This document shows, one piece after another, positions 2,960 through 60,197 of a stretch of 64,000 bases of DNA (the stretch's first letter is position 1; each line of letters opens with the position of its first letter). The position numbers were made by a program, and so were the translations under genes. The notes under the pieces are model-generated. The model searched no databases. It worked only from the letters and a program-made list of their open reading frames with translations, and was not told the DNA's origin. The stretch is from Parcubacteria group bacterium (GTDB lineage: Bacteria > Patescibacteriota > Minisyncoccia > Moranbacterales > UBA11712): assembly GCA_041659065.1 (NCBI GenBank), contig JBAZYY010000001.1, forward strand, positions 60,847-124,846. The letters are read 5' to 3'.

Positions 2960-3697
2960 ATGCCAAAACAAAAAATATTTATTCCAATTGCGTCGCTTAT
3001 TTTAGGCCTGTTTATTGTCTGGGGCTTGACATTTTTCAATTGGACGCCAGCGACATCTTATTTGGCTTATGCTATATTGGTAATTTTTTTTCTAGGAACT
3101 CTTGTATCGAACCAGCAATATGAAGAAGATAAAGTCGCAAAAATCCAAAGGATTATGGGCGCATTTCTTCTGTCGTATATTTTTTATTTCCGGCTGCTTT
3201 ACGCGCCCATCAGCCGTTTTTTCTTCGAGAATCTGATCAGCAAAGTTTCTTTTTTTTCCGATCTGCTGACGCTCTTTCTTTTCCTGATTTTTTTCTTTCT
3301 TTTCGGGACGACTTTCCTGGTCATTAACAGCTACGCTCGTTTCGGCTTTCTTTCCGAATGGCGAATCTTTAACAATTTACGCGCTTATTATGCGTTTCGG
3401 ATTCTTTTTTTCACAATGTTTCTTGCGTTCATAATGCTCTACGCGCGCAACTCATTTTTTTCAATCAATAACTCTTTCTATCTGAATAAAATTCTGGGTC
3501 CTGCTACATGCAACTGGACTTATGTGAGTTATCAGAATTTTCTTTCCACGGGGAAGGAAAAGCAGGGGAGAGACGTCTGTTTATACAATTACGCTCAAGA
3601 TAGGAATGATGTTAAGTATTGCAATTTAATTTTTGATCCGGATGTCGAAAGCCAATGCCTTGAATATTTTAATCCCGGCTCAAGCGTTCAAGAATGA
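2960..3697 (+). CDS. Polytopic membrane protein with Cys-containing C-terminal tail, unknown function
   Basis: Multiple hydrophobic helices. Start set at the ATG at 2960 because the longer ORF overlaps the upstream gene. The 3' end overlaps the gltX start (ATGA). Confidence 0.5.
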   Translation: MPKQKIFIPIASLILGLFIVWGLTFFNWTPATSYLAYAILVIFFLGTLVSNQQYEEDKVAKIQRIMGAFLLSYIFYFRLLYAPISRFFFENLISKVSFFSDLLTLFLFLIFFFLFGTTFLVINSYARFGFLSEWRIFNNLRAYYAFRILFFTMFLAFIMLYARNSFFSINNSFYLNKILGPATCNWTYVSYQNFLSTGKEKQGRDVCLYNYAQDRNDVKYCNLIFDPDVESQCLEYFNPGSSVQE

Positions 3698-5202
3698 CAT
3701 TAAATAATCTCAAAAAACCTAGAGTAAGATTCGCGCCGAGTCCCACCGGCTATCTTCATATTGGGGGCCTCCGAACGGCGCTCTATGATTTTCTTTACGC
3801 CAAAAAAAACGGGGGAGATTACTATTTGCGGATCGAAGATACGGATCAGAAACGACTAGTGCCAGATGCTATCGCCAAACTGATTGAATCGCTAAAATGG
3901 GCGGGAATAATGCATGACGAAGGCGTATTTATTAGCCAAAAGGGAGATATCATTGAAGAAGGGCAGTATGGGCCGTACATTCAATCCAAAAGGATTAAAT
4001 TATATCAAAAATACGCTCATGAGCTAATAAAAAAGGGGAAGGCATACTACTGTTTTTGTAGTCCAGAACGACTTAGTTCATTGCGCTCCATTCAGGAAAA
4101 AGCAAAAATTGCGCCAGCCTATGACAAGCTATGTTTGCGTACGGTTTCACAAGAAGCTGCAGAAGATCGCATAAAAAATGGCGAAAAATATGTGATCCGT
4201 TTCGACGTTCCTGAATCTGGCGAGACAGAATTTGACGATGTTGTTAGGGGAAGAGTTCGATTTGCCAATAAAAATTTGGATGATTGCGTTATCTTAAAAT
4301 CTGATGGCTTTCCGACTTATCATCTGGCGCATGTAGTGGATGATCATCTAATGAAAACTTCTCTGGTTTTACGCGCAGAGGAGTGGCTTCCTAGCGCACC
4401 CAAACACATTTTGCTATTTAAAGCATTCGGCTGGGAGCCAACTCAATATGGGCATCTAAGCGCCATATTAAATAAGCAAACGAAAAAAAAGCTTTCAAAA
4501 CGAGACGGGGATGTAAGTGTTGAAGATTTTAAAAAGAAAGGATACTTGCCAGAAGCAGTGATAAATTTTATTGCCCTACTCGGTTGGAATCCAAAGACAG
4601 AACAGGAAATTTTCACCTTGCCTGAGCTAATTGAGCAGTTTGATGAAAAAAAACTTAATAAAGCGGGCGCGATTTTTGATTTGGAAAAGCTGGATTGGAT
4701 GAACGGACTTTATATCCGCGAAAAAAACATCAAAGAGCTGGTTGACCTTTGCCGGCCGTATCTCGAACCCTCCTTCGCCAAGGCTACGGAGGGCAAGAAA
4801 TTACCCGATGATTATCTTGAAAAAATTGTGAGCGTGGAAAGAGAGCGGATGAAAAAACTTTCTGACATCGCTGAGAATGCTGATTTTTATTTTAAGCAGC
4901 CGACATACGAAAAAGATCTGTTGATTTGGAAAAAAATGAAAGGCGCAGAACTCATTGAATCCCTGCGGAGATCCTTAACGGCGCTGGATGGCATTCCGGA
5001 TAATAAATGGAACATAGAAAATTTAAGCAGTATTTTATTGGAGGCAGCTGATCCCAAAAATAGGGGAGCGCTTCTGTGGCCCCTTCGAGTGGCTCTTACC
5101 GGTGAAAAGAGAAGTCCTTCACCCTTTGAGGTGGCATGGGCGATAGGACGCGTGGAGAGCATTAAAAGGATACGTAAAGCTATAAGTTTAGCGGAAAAAT
5201 AA
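3694..5202 (+). CDS. gltX: Glutamate--tRNA ligase
   Basis: HIGH motif (PTGYLHIGGLRTA) and KMSKS-like KLSKRDG; class I aaRS length. Confidence 0.9.
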   Translation: MTLNNLKKPRVRFAPSPTGYLHIGGLRTALYDFLYAKKNGGDYYLRIEDTDQKRLVPDAIAKLIESLKWAGIMHDEGVFISQKGDIIEEGQYGPYIQSKRIKLYQKYAHELIKKGKAYYCFCSPERLSSLRSIQEKAKIAPAYDKLCLRTVSQEAAEDRIKNGEKYVIRFDVPESGETEFDDVVRGRVRFANKNLDDCVILKSDGFPTYHLAHVVDDHLMKTSLVLRAEEWLPSAPKHILLFKAFGWEPTQYGHLSAILNKQTKKKLSKRDGDVSVEDFKKKGYLPEAVINFIALLGWNPKTEQEIFTLPELIEQFDEKKLNKAGAIFDLEKLDWMNGLYIREKNIKELVDLCRPYLEPSFAKATEGKKLPDDYLEKIVSVERERMKKLSDIAENADFYFKQPTYEKDLLIWKKMKGAELIESLRRSLTALDGIPDNKWNIENLSSILLEAADPKNRGALLWPLRVALTGEKRSPSPFEVAWAIGRVESIKRIRKAISLAEK

Positions 5203-28360: not shown

Positions 28361-29911
28361 ATGATAATATATGCATTATCTACAAAAATGAGTGAGTACG
28401 TACTGAAAAAAGTCGGCGAGCACAAAAGGATAATCGAACCGGTTGGCAATATGAAAGTGCCTGTAGTCTTCCCTGTTTCGGATGTTTTGATGCCCGGCAC
28501 GGCTACGATTGAGGAATTAGCCAATGTCGCTTGCGACCCGCATGTTTTCCATCATGTTGCTGCGCTCTCGGACACGCATTCCAAAAAAGGCCGCAAAAAT
28601 CCCACCGGCTCAGCGGTAGCGACCAGAAGATTTTTTCTTCCTCAGGCAATGGATACGGCGCCAAATTGTGGTATGCGGCTTATCAGTACTCCTTTTGGAG
28701 AGAATGATTTGGACGGTAAGGCAGTTAACAAGCTTTTTGAAGAGCTTATTAAAGTAATTCCTACAGCAGTATATGTTGGAACCCGAGTGGACATTGATAC
28801 TGTGGTGGACGTCTGCCGTCGCGGAACGAAGGCAATTCTCGAAAAACTGAAAATTGATTCGAGTGAATACGAATATATTTTTAACGGTGGGAACTTTTTC
28901 AATGAAATTCCCAGCGAAAAAGATATACTCGACTCGATCCCAAGGACTTTTTTGCGGATTGCTCAATTGCGACTGGGAATTTTAGGCGCCGCCGGAAACC
29001 ATTTTTTGGATTTAATGAAAGTCGCTGATATTTTAGATGAAGATGTTGCAAACAAGCTGGGCATCAAAAAGGGCCAGTATCTATTTTTGATGCATACTGG
29101 ATCAGGAATGCTCGGTCAATATGCTTCATATTTTTATACTCCCAAGGAAAAAGAGCATCGCAGCCAAAAGATTGTCCTTGAAATGGGGCGGAGAGGTTTT
29201 TTGAAAAAAAATAACCCCGTTCATGAACAACTAAGGCGTGAAATTCCAGCCTGGAGGAACAAGCAAGAGTTTTACTCGATCGACAGCGAGTCTGAATTGG
29301 GGAGAATGTATATGACTGCCCATCGAGCCAGCGCAAACCACGGTTTTGCCAACCGCTCGATTCTGACTGAGCATATTCGTTTAACCGTGAAAAAAGTTTT
29401 TGGAAAAGATTTCGAGCTGCCGCTCATTTATGACATGCCGCATGTCCATGTGCAAGAGGAAACCCATTACGGGGAGAAAGTCCTGGTGCATCGTAATGGC
29501 GCTAGTCGCGCGAATGGCCCCGAACGAATGCGAAAATTACTTGACGGAGGATCAGCCTTCGTCAATCCGTTGCATGCCGAAACAGGTGAGCCAATTTTCA
29601 TTCCGTCTTCGATGGCGACTCCTTTTTATTTTGGCGTCGGTACCGACGAAAATGATGCGACCTTCTTTTCGGCCAGCCATGGTACCGGAAAAGCGAAAGA
29701 AAAGCAAGGCGTCGTTCCGAAAAATCGCGAAGAGCTGATGGAGAAGATGAAAAAAAGCAAAGTAAAGCTTTTTAACGCGAAATCTCGGCAGATTATCGAT
29801 CAGGACAGTTCGCATTATAAAGACGTGGAAGAAGTAATCGCCGGAATGACCGAAAATAAAATAATTAAAGTCGTGGCAAAAATGGATCCGATAGCGGTTT
29901 TGATGGCCTAA
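28361..29911 (+). CDS. rtcB: RtcB-family RNA 3'-phosphate ligase (divergent)
   Basis: RtcB signature motifs present: NCGMR, AGNHF, HTGSGMLG, VHRNGASRA and SASHGTGK (the His that is guanylylated in RtcB). Confidence 0.7.
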   Translation: MIIYALSTKMSEYVLKKVGEHKRIIEPVGNMKVPVVFPVSDVLMPGTATIEELANVACDPHVFHHVAALSDTHSKKGRKNPTGSAVATRRFFLPQAMDTAPNCGMRLISTPFGENDLDGKAVNKLFEELIKVIPTAVYVGTRVDIDTVVDVCRRGTKAILEKLKIDSSEYEYIFNGGNFFNEIPSEKDILDSIPRTFLRIAQLRLGILGAAGNHFLDLMKVADILDEDVANKLGIKKGQYLFLMHTGSGMLGQYASYFYTPKEKEHRSQKIVLEMGRRGFLKKNNPVHEQLRREIPAWRNKQEFYSIDSESELGRMYMTAHRASANHGFANRSILTEHIRLTVKKVFGKDFELPLIYDMPHVHVQEETHYGEKVLVHRNGASRANGPERMRKLLDGGSAFVNPLHAETGEPIFIPSSMATPFYFGVGTDENDATFFSASHGTGKAKEKQGVVPKNREELMEKMKKSKVKLFNAKSRQIIDQDSSHYKDVEEVIAGMTENKIIKVVAKMDPIAVLMA

Positions 29912-53338: not shown

Positions 53339-53412
53339 TGGGGAGTAGCCAAGCGGTAAGGCAGTGGCCTCTGAAGCCACCATCGGGGGTCCGAATCCCT
53401 CCTCCCCAGCCA
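53339..53412 (+). tRNA. tRNA-Gln (anticodon CUG)
   Basis: Manual cloverleaf: acceptor UGGGGAG/CUCCCCA (U1-A72), D-arm GCC...GGC, anticodon stem GUGGC/GCCAC with loop CUCUGAA, T-arm GGGGG-UCCGAAU-CCCUC, CCA encoded. Confidence 0.85.
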
Positions 53413-53652
53413 TCTTTCGCCAAGGCTTCAGAGTGGCTTTGAAACAATCTTTTGCGTAAGACCACAGAGTGGCTTTGGCTGCAATAAAATGTTCTATTTA
53501 TATATTATTTATAGCTCAAAATCTAGAAATTTCTATTACGTCTAAAATCTGGATCAGAAAAAGCTTTCGCATATAAAAGACTGCTGAATTTGGAAGCCTT
53601 AAGGAAAGATAAGTGAAGCGCCTTTGGTATTCCGAAGCTTTAGCGAAGGATA

Positions 53653-53666
53653 CCCTCCTCCCCAGC
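53653..53666 (+). repeat. 14-nt direct repeat of the tRNA-Gln 3' end (CCCTCCTCCCCAGC), 243 bp downstream of the tRNA
   Basis: Exact match to 53397-53410 inside the tRNA T-arm/acceptor. Confidence 0.55.
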
Positions 53667-53703
53667 TGATAAATTAACTTTTAGAAAATATTTACTTAAG
53701 CGC

Positions 53704-57447: not shown

Positions 57448-58543
57448 TTATAACTTGCAATTATCCGCGAGATAAGCTTCGACGAATGCGTCCAGATCCC
57501 CATCTAAAACGTCGGCTGGATTTTTGGACTCAACCTTTGTGCGATGGTCTTTGACCAGTTGATAGGGATGCAAAACATAAGATCTAATTTGACTCCCCCA
57601 CTGAACCGACGCGTGTTCGCCCTTGAGGCTCTCTTTTTCTTTTGCTTTTGCTTCCAGATTTTTCTGGAACAGTTTTGCTTTCAGTATATTTAAAGCTTTT
57701 TCTTTGTTTTGCAGCTGGCTTCGCTCGCTTTGGCAAGTGGCGGTTATTCCGGTCAGGAGATGCGTGATTCTGACTGCGCTTGAGGTTTTATTGACCGATT
57801 GACCCCCGGCTCCCCCGGAGCGATAAGTGTCGATTCGCAGATCCTTGGGGTCAAATTCGACTACATCCGAGGCCGAATCAAGCTCTGGTAAAATCTCAAC
57901 TAGTGCAAAGGATGTTTGCCTCAGATTATTGGCGTTAAACGGAGACAGTCTGACCAGGCGGTGGATGCCGGCTTCCGAGCGAAGATTTCCATAAGCCATC
58001 CTACCTCTGATTTCCAAGGTCGCGCTCTTAATCCCGGCCTCCTGTCCTCGGGATTCGGATATTATCTTAGCGTGCCATTTTTTTCTCTCGGCAAAACGCA
58101 GGTACATTCGCATCAGCATCTCAGCCCAATCCTGCGCGTCCACTCCGCCTGTACCGCTATGAATGCTTAAAATCACATTACGGTTGTCATATTCTCCTTG
58201 GAATGTCATTTCCTTTTCGAGTTCAAGTAGTTTCTGATCAAGCATTTCAAGCTCGGTCTGGATTTCCCTTTCCATCTTCTTGTCATTTGCGGAAATTTTT
58301 GAAAGTTCGGAAAGATTATTCAGGGAAGATTCAGTCTCGGACAGTCCGCTTACTTCTTTTTTGAGCATCTCCAGCTCTTTTAAGGTTTCCTGCGCTTTCT
58401 CCGGATTCTGCCAGAAGTTTTCATCCGCACTTAAGACCTCGAGTTCGGTGATTTTTTTTGATTTCGAGGCAAAGTCAAAGACAGTCACTTAACGAATTGA
58501 CTCTCAGGCGCATCTCATCAATTTTGTTCAAAATTTCTTGCAT
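57448..58543 (-). CDS. prfB: Peptide chain release factor 2, expressed via programmed +1 ribosomal frameshift
   Basis: SPF tripeptide-anticodon motif and GGQ motif (SGGAGGQSVNKT). Frame 0 runs from ATG 58543-58541 through MQEILNKIDEMRLRVNSLSDCL and ends at CTT TGA C (58480-58474). The +1 frame continues as DFASKSKK... to 57448. Confidence 0.85.
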
Positions 58544-58550
58544 TGGCCTA

Positions 58551-58559: not shown

Positions 58560-58783
58560 TAGAGGGACATTTCCGCCAATATCCAGGGTAATAAGTAGCT
58601 AACTTTTGGGAGTAAATTTGGCTGAAATCATGGAATTATTTGCGCTCAGGAAAATAGTTGCTATAATTCAGAATGTTGTTGTGGGCCTGTGATATTTTCC
58701 TTTGAGTTTCAAAGGTTAAGCTAAAGGACTACTAAACAGTTGAAAAAAACTATTACTTTAACTATCGAGGGAAAATATGGCAG

Positions 58784-58857
58784 GCGGGATTAGTTTAGTG
58801 GCAGAACACGACCTTCCCAAGGTTGAAACACGGGTTCGATTCCCGTATCCCGCTCCA
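58784..58857 (+). tRNA. tRNA-Gly (anticodon CCC)
   Basis: Manual cloverleaf: acceptor GCGGGAU/AUCCCGC, anticodon stem CGACC/GGUUG with loop UUCCCAA, T-arm ACGGG-UUCGAUU-CCCGU, CCA encoded. Confidence 0.85.
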
Positions 58858-58864
58858 AAAATTT

Positions 58865-58877
58865 GCCGATGTAGCTC
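58865..58877 (+). pseudogene. tRNA 5' fragment (GCCGATG-TA-GCTC: acceptor strand plus start of D-stem) with no contiguous cloverleaf
   Basis: Matches the canonical tRNA 5' end through position 13, then diverges. It is complementary to the acceptor 3' strand of the fragment at 59073-59099. Confidence 0.4.
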
Positions 58878-58937
58878 CCTCCGTCGTCCCGCAGAGCGGG
58901 ACTTTGGCGGGCAGGCAGTTGGCAGAATAAAAAATAA

Positions 58938-59011
58938 GCCCACATAGCTCAGCTGGTAGAGCAATGCTTTCGTAAAGCAGAGGTCGTCGGTTCGACTCCG
59001 ACTGTGGGCTC
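58938..59011 (+). tRNA. tRNA-Thr (anticodon CGU)
   Basis: Manual cloverleaf: acceptor GCCCACA/UGUGGGC, D-arm GCUC-AGCUGGUA-GAGC, anticodon loop UUCGUAA, T-arm GUCGG-UUCGACU-CCGAC; CCA not encoded. Confidence 0.85.
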
Positions 59012-59072
59012 AGGCTTAGGTAGGCGGGGCGACGCAATTCCGCCAAAGGCGGATAAACTCCACGCGTAGGTC

Positions 59073-59099
59073 GCCGGTTCGATCCCGGCCATCGGCTCA
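59073..59099 (+). pseudogene. tRNA 3' fragment (T-arm GCCGG-TTCGATC-CCGGC plus acceptor 3' strand CATCGGC-T-CA) lacking an upstream D/anticodon arm
   Basis: Canonical T-loop. The acceptor strand pairs perfectly with GCCGATG at 58865-58871, ~205 nt upstream. No anticodon arm can be folded from the intervening sequence. Confidence 0.4.
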
Positions 59100-59135
59100 A
59101 ATAAAAAAGCCCGGCCGATAAGAGCCGAGCTTTTT
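59092..59135 (+). terminator. Terminator-like hairpin plus T-run after the tRNA cluster
   Basis: CGGCTC...GAGCCG stem followed by TTTTT. Confidence 0.5.
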
Positions 59136-59147
59136 ACAAAAACATTT

Positions 59148-60197
59148 CTACGGAAATACCGAAGGGTCGCCTTGCGAAGTTGCGCCCAAGGAGCTTTCAA
59201 ATTGTTTCATTCCTGAGTCGGTAAATTCAGCAAGCTCTGAATCCTTATTCCAGGCGTAATCCTTGAGAAAAATTGTGATGTTATAATCTTTTGTTTTTTC
59301 TTTTAACCAATCCGCAAAGGTTGTTTTTTTGACAAAAATTTGCCGGATGTGAACCAAGTCCTGGTCATCTTCGGTCTTTTTTTCTTCAAGTTTGATGATA
59401 TGGAAGCCCAAAGGGCTTTCTATAGCCTCACTTACCTCGCCTGGTTTCATCGCGAAAGCTTTGTCAGAGACAGCTTGGATTAGTTGGTCCTTGGTTGACC
59501 AGCCCAAATCTCCCCCACCTTGAGAACTTTGCCCCTCGGAATCGATACTTGCAACTTTCGCGAAATCTTCCTTGTTCTTTGCTACTCTTTCCCAAAGCGA
59601 TTGGGCTTTTTTAAGCTGGGTGGAGGTATCCACTTCATTAGCGTAAGCTTCTGATAACTTCTCGGCGTATAACTCCGGCTTCACTACCTGTTGTTTAAAA
59701 TCAGAAAAGGTCCAGCCATAGAGCCGAGCCAGATCGCTGATGAGTTTTTCCCGGTTGCCATATTGCTGAATATTATTTTCAACCTCGGCGTCAACCGCCT
59801 GATCACTGATTTCTATGCCACGTTTTTGCGCCAAGCTCAGAATAATTTTATTTTCAATAAGTTTGTTAATCACCTCTTTCTCTTTTACTTTCAGCCGCTT
59901 TTCCCCCTGATCTGTCCCGAAGTCAACTCGCATGCCGATCTGTTCAAAATCCTGGGATTCATAAAACTTTTTAACGGAGTTTAAATCCGCTTTGATTTCA
60001 TTCACGCTGATTGAGCCCGCTCCATTTACGTAAACGGCAGGAAAAGGAAGTAAGTTTGATACACTAGTGAAAACACGATTGTTCCAATTAAACTTATATA
60101 CGCCGAGTACCATAACCAAAAGAAAGGCAAAAATAATAACAATGGCCGCAATGACCGAGATTAGCAAAGTCAGCTGCTTTTTTTTATTCTTTTTCAT
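59148..60197 (-). CDS. Membrane-anchored parvulin-type peptidyl-prolyl isomerase (PrsA/SurA-like foldase)
   Basis: N-terminal TM helix, SurA-like helical region, and C-terminal parvulin domain (GGDLGWSTKDQL...SPLGFHIIKLEE). Confidence 0.75.
   Translation of the reverse strand: MKKNKKKQLTLLISVIAAIVIIFAFLLVMVLGVYKFNWNNRVFTSVSNLLPFPAVYVNGAGSISVNEIKADLNSVKKFYESQDFEQIGMRVDFGTDQGEKRLKVKEKEVINKLIENKIILSLAQKRGIEISDQAVDAEVENNIQQYGNREKLISDLARLYGWTFSDFKQQVVKPELYAEKLSEAYANEVDTSTQLKKAQSLWERVAKNKEDFAKVASIDSEGQSSQGGGDLGWSTKDQLIQAVSDKAFAMKPGEVSEAIESPLGFHIIKLEEKKTEDDQDLVHIRQIFVKKTTFADWLKEKTKDYNITIFLKDYAWNKDSELAEFTDSGMKQFESSLGATSQGDPSVFP

Follow-up and report, generated by a model that had tools for sequence, protein, structure and literature searches.

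A probable tRNA-Thr(CGU) pseudogene enclosing its own replacement at a tRNA locus of Moranbacteria

The tRNA array and its interrupted gene

The window analysed here is a 64,000-nucleotide segment of the chromosome of a Moranbacteria genome (Parcubacteria; candidate phyla radiation, CPR). The subject of this work is the interval 58865–59099 of this window, in which a transfer RNA (tRNA) gene for threonine appears to be broken up around a second one. The gene order around it is prfB (57448–58488, minus strand), an intact tRNA-Gly(CCC) which is the first gene of the array (58784–58857, plus strand), the interval itself, a terminator-like hairpin (59101–59135) and the gene of a peptidyl-prolyl isomerase (PPIase; 59148–60197, minus strand). 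The PPIase is 100% identical to a protein from “Parcubacteria group bacterium”, and the relatives of this protein belong to Candidatus Moranbacteria.

The interval contained four colinear pieces of a tRNA-Thr(CGU) gene, all on the plus strand. Piece 1 (58865–58877, GCCGATGTAGCTC) corresponded to positions 1–13 of the tRNA, i.e., the acceptor 5′ strand, U8, A9 and the D-stem 5′ strand. This is the 5′ end GCCGATG-TA-GCTC that had been recognised at the same place in an initial annotation of the window, and it was identical at 13 of 13 positions to the intact genes of three related loci, L001, L008 and L014 (orthologous loci and other contigs are designated by L numbers). Piece 2 (58917–58926, AGTTGGCAGA) covered positions 14–23, with the D loop and the first two bases of the D-stem 3′ strand, and piece 3 (59029–59036, GCGACGCA) covered positions 24–31, with the GC of the D stem, G26 and the anticodon-stem 5′ strand ACGCA. 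Piece 4 (59063–59097, followed by CA to 59099) covered positions 39–73: the anticodon-stem 3′ strand and the variable loop (59063–59072), then the T arm, the acceptor 3′ strand and the discriminator U. The T arm and acceptor 3′ strand were found at 59073–59099, where they had been annotated, and the two 7-nt acceptor strands of the outer gene are perfectly complementary. Pieces 2, 3 and 4 matched the gene of L014 at 10/10, 8/8 and 35/35 positions, and the four pieces together (13 + 10 + 8 + 35 nt) accounted for 66 of the 66 positions of this intact tRNA-Thr(CGU), which occupies the same locus in a related Moranbacteria. The match is not due to chance, since the 13-mer of piece 1 and the 35-nt 3′ piece each occur only once in the window, where 0.05 and 0 copies, respectively, would be expected by chance, and since the identity to the intact orthologue is complete. 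The statement in the initial annotation that no D arm or anticodon arm could be folded for this tRNA did not hold: segments of both arms exist (58917–58926, 59029–59036 and 59063–59072) and are parted by insertions. In relatives, the intact gene reads GCCGATGTAGCTCAGTTGGCAGAGCGACGCACTCGTAACGCGTAGGTC(G/C)(C/G)CGGTTCGATCCCG(G/C)(C/G)CATCGGCT.

Three insertions separate these pieces. Insertion 1 (58878–58916, plus strand) is a GC-rich hairpin of 39 nt located in the D loop between positions 13 and 14, and is absent from intact orthologues. The next insertion is a cassette of 102 nt between positions 23 and 24, composed of an 11-nt leader (ATAAAAAATAA, 58927–58937, plus strand) lying between the break point and the inner gene, an intact tRNA-Thr(CGU), and a 16-nt trailer (GGCTTAGGTAGGCGGG, 59013–59028, plus strand) which forms the right arm of the insert. 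The cassette junction A23|G24 is exact (..GGCAGA|GCGACGCA..), with no base lost, gained or duplicated. Insertion 3 (59037–59062, plus strand) is a hairpin of 26 nt, ATT-CCGCC-aaa-GGCGG-ATAAACTCCA, which replaces the 7-nt anticodon loop CTCGTAA, so that no anticodon is left. Splicing of the outer gene would therefore still not produce a tRNA capable of decoding: excision of all three insertions leaves ACGCA|CGCGT without an anticodon loop, and no excision scheme restores an anticodon. Both hairpin insertions belong to a family, called E and aligned in alignment A3, Insertion 1 being in the forward orientation. The two perfect hairpins that had been annotated in the interval were both present. 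CCGCC-aaa-GGCGG (59040–59052) is the stem-loop of Insertion 3, and GTCCCGC-aga-GCGGGAC is nested within the loop of Insertion 1, at 58886–58902, one base off the position first given for it.

The inner tRNA-Thr(CGU), with the acceptor GCCCACA, extends from 58938 to 59010 on the plus strand (to 59012 in the feature table), and is the complete tRNA that had been noticed between the two halves. It was called by ARAGORN and scored 66.5 bits with the Rfam tRNA model and 95.6 bits with R1, a clade-specific covariance model for which 18 intact Thr(CGU) genes were used. It possesses the features of a functional tRNA: a cloverleaf, the anticodon CGU, the Thr identity pairs G1-C72 and C2-G71, a start in GCC.. 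and an end in ..GGC-U. Its allele type is different from that of the outer gene, and it is 100% identical to the tRNA-Thr of L006, a locus with a PPIase identity of only 63%. With ARAGORN and Rfam, tRNA thresholds were reached only by this gene and by the tRNA-Gly (66.7 bits with Rfam). The outer element gave no Rfam tRNA hit and lacks the cloverleaf with anticodon loop, above threshold, of a functional tRNA. Its 3′ part, taken with the cassette trailer, scored 31.9 bits with R1, and the “tRNA-Phe(aaa)” that ARAGORN called at 59014–59098 is a false call composed of the trailer and the outer 3′ half. Judged from these sequence features, the inner gene is probably the working tRNA-Thr(CGU) and the outer pieces are relics.

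The region 58600–59300 was searched with the Rfam covariance models at the gathering threshold and at E ≤ 10. Besides tRNA, represented by the two intact genes, no Rfam family was found for the interval, whether intron, ribozyme or transfer-messenger RNA (tmRNA), even at E ≤ 10. No core of a group I intron (RF00028) or of the group II families was detected in 58600–59300 at E ≤ 10. No tmRNA was found by ARAGORN; the Rfam tmRNA models touched T-loop fragments only, with 9–13 bits, and the acceptor (GCC/GGC) has no G3:U70 pair. These ARAGORN and covariance searches, which the initial annotation had suggested, called the inner gene and the tRNA-Gly, and neither an intron nor a tmRNA. The junctions AGA|ATAAAA and GGCGGG|GCGACG cannot form the 3-4-3 structure of a bulge-helix-bulge (BHB) motif, none was present in the predicted folds, and no tRNA splicing endonuclease was encoded among the 55 open reading frames (ORFs) of the 64-kb window. 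The 5′ half precedes the 3′ half on the plus strand, so that the gene is not permuted, and the 5′ and 3′ halves both flank the 102-nt insert, in the absence of an integrase in the window, which is not the configuration of an integrase attachment (att) site. In the minimum-free-energy structure predicted for the 235 nt, the outer acceptor stem is closed (z of −2.5 relative to shuffled sequences). Folding was only weakly better than that of shuffled sequences (z of −2.5 and −2.9), and in a longer context the outer stem was lost and the 5′ piece folded locally. The window encodes an RNA ligase of the RtcB family (516 aa, 28361–29911) and a LigT-like 2H phosphoesterase/2′-5′ RNA ligase (1623–2207). 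RtcB ligases are common in bacteria without split tRNAs, and nothing tied the RtcB or the LigT-like enzyme to the tRNA relics.

On the upstream side of the array, a candidate promoter of the tRNA operon can be read at 58640–58667 on the plus strand (TTGCGC, a 16-nt spacer and the extended −10 TGcTATAAT). Its counterpart in related loci, TTGCCA..TGGTATAAT, occupies the equivalent place 5′ of the first (pseudo)tRNA-Gly. The candidate was missed by a consensus scan because its −35 agrees with the consensus at 3/6 positions only. Within the 116-nt leader between this promoter and the tRNA-Gly, CCTTTGAGTTTCAAAGGTTAAGC (58684–58740) recalls the anticodon arm of a tRNA-Gly (ACCTTCCCAAGGTTGA) in decayed form, with extra loop bases, a weak similarity undetected by the covariance model; it may be a very old tRNA-Gly relic. 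On the downstream side, the bidirectional hairpin GCCCGGC..GCCGAGC (59101–59135), with an A run before and a T run after, is a putative terminator common to the tRNA array on the plus strand and the PPIase gene on the minus strand. It aligned with the terminator stems of leader families in the Rfam search and was skipped by a simple terminator scan because of one stem mismatch. The gene prfB, encoding release factor 2 (RF2), displays a canonical programmed +1 frameshift site (minus strand 58475–58545), with the ATG at ~58542 and ..TGT CTT TGA C.. at ~58475–58481. The mechanically delimited ORF starting at 58488 is thus the downstream frame only.

Intact genes, nests and alleles at orthologous loci

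The PPIase gene served to gather orthologous loci, of which species-representative genomes supplied 80 and metagenomes 78. In approximately 30 of them the PPIase identity was at least 57% and the tRNA-Gly(CCC)/tRNA-Thr(CGU) array was retained just downstream of the PPIase gene. About half of these ~30 loci contained nests, up to three deep, and the remainder a plain Gly-Thr array; related nests were present in at least 12 distinct loci other than the window. The initial annotation had considered that an ordinary orthologous array with one decayed member would speak against a genuine interruption. This expectation was half borne out, with many loci ordinary and about half carrying homologous nests. 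An uninterrupted Thr gene was found between prfB and the PPIase gene in L001, L002, L003, L005, L007, L008, L014, L086, L087 and L089. With the clade model, exactly one full-scoring tRNA-Thr was present per nest locus, excepting L091, in which only relics were found, among them a tRNA-Thr remnant of 28.6 bits.

In L018 (Moranbacteria RIFOXYB1_FULL_43_19) the break was at the same site as in the window (GGTAGA|GCAATG), with the same inner allele. The L018 trailer GGCTTAGGCAAGTGGG, to which the trailer of the window is homologous, pairs with the L018 leader (CTTGCC..TAAGCC), and the anticodon-loop hairpin of this locus reads TTT-CCGCC-tgt-GGCGG-ATAAACTCCA. The position of the leader is occupied by an E-type left arm, YTTRCCCGCC, in L018, L096 and L004. 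The four loci L010, L013 (=L094), L015 and L088 possess the same outer gene and D-loop hairpin as the window, a different inner Thr(CGU) allele, and an extra hairpin of 31 nt exactly at T55|C56 of the T loop. The 5′ acceptor strand is gone in L088, and L082 is an allele of the L088 type in which the outer 3′ half is deleted between GGCTCAA repeats. Decayed 5′ pieces ending in ..AGA| were observed in L095, L096 and L011, the piece of L095 being mutated. Nesting is threefold in L009 and L004, where the break in the middle gene falls within the anticodon, at TTCG|; the middle gene of L009 restarts exactly at |TAAAGCG with its 3′ half, and both of its halves were found by the clade model. L083, L090 and L012 share the leader of the insert at 35/36. 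Changes in the outer acceptor are uncompensated in L018 (GCCGATA) and in L009 (GCCGAGA), each facing CATCGGC, and at least 11 relatives were without any relic. The outer pieces thus behave as pseudogenes, because the losses vary by genome, the acceptor changes are uncompensated and these relatives do without them.

Intact and nest alleles coexist inside clades defined by the PPIase identity matrix. The PPIases of L003 (intact) and L082 (nest) are 90% identical and the flanks of the two loci near-identical (promoter region, tRNA-Gly, spacer and terminator), the relic of L082 being more diverged than the flanks that it shares with L003. Among the Thr(CGU) genes, 24 different sequences were distinguished, which combine acceptor, anticodon-arm and T-arm modules as mosaics. 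L084 is a chimera that looks functional, its GCCGATG acceptor and T arm being associated with D and anticodon arms from the other allele type. In another chimera, on the short metagenome contig L157, a GCCCACG 5′ strand faces a CATCGGC 3′ strand, with two acceptor mismatches. These patterns suggest that the alleles of the locus, insertions included, are swapped by homologous recombination among related lineages.

Relics of other tRNA genes were also observed. Dead tRNA-Gly(CCC) copies flank the live tRNA-Gly on both sides in L009 (~4500–4690), L010 (~4150–4225) and L018 (~4340–4500), minus strand. The upstream copies show a T-loop or T-arm deletion, and in L009 and L010 they are also interrupted, precisely at 35/36 of the anticodon loop, by an E hairpin of 29 nt. 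Of the downstream copies only “mini-tRNAs” are left, in which the variable loop and the T-stem 3′ strand follow each other between the 5′ and 3′ acceptor strands. Apart from the hairpin, the dead copies on both sides look like tandem copies with arm-level deletions. In the window, tRNA-Gln(CUG) is intact (53339–53412), and 14 nt of its 3′ end, CCCTCCTCCCCAGC, recur unchanged ~240 nt later (~53652–53665). The hairpin GGTATTC-CGAAGCTTTAGCGAAG-GATACC lies immediately 5′ of this repeat, and an inverted copy of the anticodon loop of the tRNA-Gln is found directly 3′ of the gene, in a TTCGCCAAGGCTTC-type hairpin (~53417–53440). The region (53339–53670) gives the impression of a small insert, non-coding and with an att-like duplication, or of another relic. 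In the contigs retrieved via homologues of both genes flanking the tRNA-Gln, synteny was not conserved and no tRNAs were found. All three relic-associated tRNAs, Gly-CCC, Thr-CGU and Gln-CUG, are C34 isoacceptors.

The E hairpins and related sequences

Alignment A3 comprises 14 insertions in the D, anticodon and T loops of Thr relics and in the anticodon loop of Gly relics, corresponding to five kinds of site. When oriented alike, the E insertions share a common left end, YYTRYCCGCC, a GGCGG right arm and a purine-rich tail. They were found in either orientation, are exact when compared to the intact alleles of close relatives (e.g., L086 versus L015) and lie mostly in tRNA loops; the tRNA cassette instead splits the D-stem 3′ strand at 23/24. 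The arms of the tRNA-bearing inserts also carry E ends: CTTGCCCGCC in L018, TTTACCCGCC in L096 and L004, and TTTACCCTCC in L011. Homologues of Insertion 1 were present at the same site in L010, L013, L015, L082 and L009. The element of Insertion 3 was also present in L018, inside a different anticodon stem, and as remnants in L009, L013 and L091.

No target-site duplication was seen at any junction of the E insertions, and the sites have no common target sequence. No E copy was found elsewhere in the window nor in ~850 kb of related loci, a sample biased to this locus. As hairpins with several related copies at different sites, the E insertions qualify as small palindromic sequences. They differ from miniature inverted-repeat transposable elements (MITEs) and repetitive extragenic palindromic (REP) sequences by the lack of a duplication, of a transposase in the window and of copies outside tRNA relics in the window and the ~850 kb. 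Pfam scans of the 55 ORFs of the window revealed no transposase, integrase, reverse transcriptase or homing endonuclease. Two possible sources of the hairpins, the tRNA-Gly acceptor strands for the E arms and the Thr anticodon arm lacking CGTA for the E core, were dropped, the matches being of 7–13 nt only. In the search for a phage origin, the pattern of the D-loop element had no match in viral contigs and the 14-mer of the T-loop junction gave chance-level matches only.

A 16-nt core, CGAAGCTTTAGCGAAG, the same as in the hairpin near the tRNA-Gln, was present in 63 IMG/VR viral contigs with a GC content of 27% to 71% (L159–L168 and L299–L357; e.g., L161 at 3598–3619, L357, L356, L327 and L311). 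In at least 19 cases it was framed by perfect stems of 4–8 bp of unlike sequence (CACACTG/CAGTGTG, ATCCGC/GCGGAT, GCCCTC/GAGGGC, CCATA/TATGG and others), and such stems around a conserved loop amount to strong covariation. The viral hairpins sometimes formed tandem or inverted pairs and often lay beside a second type of hairpin, with the core T(A/T)CGCCAAGGCT(A/T)CG; in some, the 3′ arm GGAGGG was located 7–13 nt ahead of a start codon. They corresponded to no Rfam family, and the core was absent from cultured phages and plasmids and, as a string, from the literature. It is possible that the viral hairpin is an undescribed motif or element related to the hairpins of the tRNA relics. In the viral contig L308 (1041–1132), a CCATA-core-TATGG hairpin abuts the 5′ end of a tRNA-Val(CAC), with a two-base overlap. 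Lastly, a 40-nt double-hairpin element (CCCGGTCATCCGACCGGG and CCCCGTCGAATGACGGGG) was found at TTCG|A of the T loop in L004 (~4101–4148) and L083 (~3805–3845), in opposite orientations, the host being a tRNA-Thr relic in the former and a tRNA-Gly relic in the latter.

A proposed recurrent replacement process and its alternatives

We propose, with a probability of about 0.78, that 58865–59099 corresponds to a resident tRNA-Thr(CGU) gene which was interrupted three times and is now a pseudogene enclosing its replacement, within a replacement process that recurs at this locus. One of the options of the initial annotation, an insert carrying a tRNA inside a tRNA gene, agrees with the exact break and the uninterrupted gene of relatives; the suggestion that this insert might be intron-like does not, in the absence of any group I/II, BHB or tmRNA signature. 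In our model, a single transcript, starting at the candidate promoter near 58640, would extend as far as the terminator at 59101–59135, through the tRNA-Gly, the outer 5′ relic, the inner tRNA-Thr and the outer 3′ relic. RNase P and 3′ trimming would free the tRNA-Gly and the inner tRNA-Thr, and the relic RNA would be discarded. A dispensable C34 isoacceptor gene would be replaced recurrently, an insertion haplotype being neutral when a working copy comes with it. Such a haplotype would move between lineages by recombination, with the outer halves and the neighbouring tRNA-Gly supplying the homology, and homologous recombination with resident alleles would lead to nests that are always of the same identity within the same identity, and to mosaic alleles. 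Heteroduplex repair would correct point mismatches and could not remove large insertion loops, which may account for portable, conserved insertions on varied backgrounds, for relics identical to functional alleles and, again, for same-identity nests.

Several observations weigh against this interpretation. The outer pieces carry no point substitution (66/66) despite the three insertions. The window and L018 are 90% identical over 171 nt, for a PPIase identity of 57% and other intergenic DNA that cannot be aligned. Between L009 and L010 the insertions differ at 2 of 29 positions and the surrounding relic at 8 of 21 (our own count). The same anticodon-loop hairpin is located between different stems, ACGCA/CGCGT in the window and ATGCT/AGCAG in L018, so that simple vertical descent is not the explanation. 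An unmutated relic together with overly conserved hairpins could mean that the composite RNA is under selection; we would rather ascribe both to recombination or to recent spread. Moreover, the search for tRNA-Thr(CGU) covered 64 kb of this genome and so cannot show that the inner gene is its sole one.

As regards origin, it is possible, though the odds are clearly against it, that the E hairpins and the tRNA cassette constitute one family of tiny palindromic mobile elements which insert precisely into tRNA loops without target duplication. The form with a tRNA would then act as a self-complementing cassette, destroying the resident gene and taking its place, an idea which concerns origin only and is compatible with the outer gene being a pseudogene. 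The left end common to the 14 insertions in the loops (D, anticodon or T) of Thr and Gly relics argues for such a family, as do the two orientations, the exactness relative to intact alleles, the same end on the cassette arms of L018, L096, L004 and L011, the absence from the rest of the window and from the ~850 kb of related loci, the better conservation of the insertions than of their host relics, and the related core CGAAGCTTTAGCGAAG, with its covarying stems, widespread in viral contigs. However, none of the 55 ORFs encodes a transposase, integrase, reverse transcriptase or homing endonuclease, and the insertion sites share neither a sequence nor a target-site duplication. No copy was seen outside tRNA relics, in a sample biased to the locus, and solo E insertions occur only in nest-bearing haplotypes, so that the alternative, a few ancient events spread by recombination, could look alike. 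The related view, that a selfish “replacement cassette” kills the resident tRNA gene, supplies the same tRNA and spreads via homology without an enzyme of its own, is likewise rather improbable; the viral CGAAGCTTTAGCGAAG core would then be part of a much broader class of tiny hairpin elements, as yet undescribed.

An integrative element or prophage that entered the tRNA gene with its own tRNA-Thr, and was later almost entirely deleted, is an unlikely source of the nest. Anticodon-loop and T-loop breakpoints were reportedly described by Williams in 2002 as classical integrase sublocations, and both occur at the present loci; the att-like 14-nt repeat ~240 nt after the tRNA-Gln is a further point in favour of this origin. 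As a rule, an integrase leaves the tRNA repaired by a partial 3′ copy, and only a 3′ fragment is displaced. In the present nest, both halves flank only ~100 nt, the D-stem site 23/24 is not among the known sublocations, no integrase is nearby and the same minimal insert size is found across many lineages. Decay of a tandem array of three tRNA-Thr, the first having lost its 3′ part and the third its 5′ part independently, is quite unlikely, even though dead tRNA-Gly copies surround the live one in L009, L010 and L018 and the clade model and ARAGORN align the trailer and 3′ half as a poor full-length tRNA. The halves abut exactly at A23|G24, likewise in L018 on another allele background, and at TTCG|TAA in L009, and such repeated, base-exact complementarity makes two independent deletions implausible; in addition, the complementary leader and trailer of L018 are the arms of a single insert. 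A decayed duplicated array, which the initial annotation had listed among its options, therefore does not suit the Thr pieces, although it suits the dead tRNA-Gly copies of related loci. We consider it very unlikely that the composite is a selected structured RNA, either a scaffold that helps to process the inner tRNA or a tRNA decoy devoid of an anticodon, in which the hairpins would be functional expansions. The identity of the relic to functional alleles (66/66), hairpin stems that change and still pair (CCGCC/GGCGG versus CCCCG/CGGGG) and the location of the insertions mainly in loops, the cassette in the D-stem 3′ strand apart, would agree with selection. The architecture is inconsistent, however: lineages miss the 3′ half, the 5′ acceptor strand, the D-loop or the T-loop hairpin, acceptor mismatches are uncompensated and the composite is lacking in at least 11 relatives. 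That the outer halves are the exons of a functional tRNA, joined in cis as around an intron or in trans as in a split gene, is highly improbable in spite of the perfect acceptor stem, the intact T arm, a predicted fold of the 235 nt that closes this stem and the known tRNA introns of Patescibacteria (PMC13011429). No plausible excision yields an anticodon, no group I/II intron was hit at E ≤ 10 and no BHB exists at the junctions, the 5′ piece folds locally in a longer context with a z of only −2.5 for the 235 nt, and orthologous relics lose halves or gain uncompensated mismatches. The RtcB (28361–29911) and LigT-like (1623–2207) enzymes fit a joining of exons, but ligases of these types are common, so their presence does not make up for the missing anticodon. 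The normal order of the halves and the missing anticodon likewise leave a nested or permuted functional arrangement, also proposed initially, unsupported. Finally, there is next to no chance that the assembly merged the alleles of two strains. The contig is metagenome-assembled and a Logan contig of the same gene stops just short of the array, but an ENA contig that was assembled independently has the identical sequence, neither allele contains the leader, trailer or hairpins, and homologous nests occur in assemblies from many studies and species.

Among known systems, the nest resembles the insertion-derived tRNA pseudogenes and fragments of bacteria, in which a dead partial tRNA with breakpoints in loops lies beside a functional gene of the same identity. 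Unlike in these, both halves survive here, exactly complementary, around ~100 nt with a whole replacement gene, and stacking reaches three deep across a family-level clade, with no integrase and no att-type 3′ restoration. Group I introns have been reported in Patescibacteria at 35/36 in tRNA-Asn/Asp and at 36/37 in tRNA-Thr (PMC13011429). The phylum is the same and the anticodon loop is interrupted in both cases (at 35/36 in L009, L004, L083 and L090, and by the E hairpin at 35/36 of Gly relics), whereas the nest inserts measure 19–110 nt, have no group I core and hold a tRNA or a simple hairpin, and the gene of the window is without an anticodon. The split tRNAs of Nanoarchaeum, the multi-intron tRNAs of Thermoproteales (up to three introns) and the permuted tRNAs of Cyanidioschyzon rely on BHB motifs and a splicing endonuclease and give functional products. 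Several non-canonical interruptions, and the complementary leader and trailer of L018, recall these tRNAs; in contrast, the present case concerns a bacterium, no BHB is formed, the halves lie in order on one strand ~200 nt apart and there is no anticodon. Small palindromic elements are known as REP/REPIN sequences, Rickettsia palindromic elements, small dispersed repeats of Nostoc, GC clusters of yeast mitochondria and double-hairpin elements of Allomyces. The E insertions are similar to them as GC-rich hairpins of 20–40 nt in an AT-richer genome, in either orientation, with nested loops and a location in loops of structured RNAs. They differ in being seen only in tRNA genes and relics (~0.9 Mb), in having one form with a tRNA and no transposase, and in that they lie in dead genes instead of genes that tolerate the insertion. 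Nested tRNA genes of the same identity were not described in the literature searched, which also yielded nothing directly relevant on pseudogenes of tRNAs in this phylum or on small palindromes inserted into tRNA genes, the nearest being the group I intron paper (PMC13011429). The nest is apparently an undescribed variant of tRNA pseudogenisation and replacement and not a spliced or split functional tRNA.

For annotation, this implies that such relics could pass for split, intron-containing or novel tRNAs in CPR genomes, as illustrated here by the bogus tRNA-Phe(AAA) of ARAGORN. A streamlined lineage of Patescibacteria would keep replacing the same dispensable C34 tRNA genes by nesting, and would tolerate stacks of dead genes in a transcribed operon. 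The same-identity nesting, the mosaic alleles and the near-identical insertions in distant genomes suggest that uncultured relatives often exchange tRNA alleles by homologous recombination; a new, tiny insertion element aimed at tRNA loops may be a further implication. If the E hairpins are indeed such elements, the locus would offer a tractable case of a gene spreading by destroying and replacing its own homologue. If the cassette spreads by replacement, CPR bacteria would possess, at the level of tRNA genes, a counterpart of intron homing or of a gene drive.

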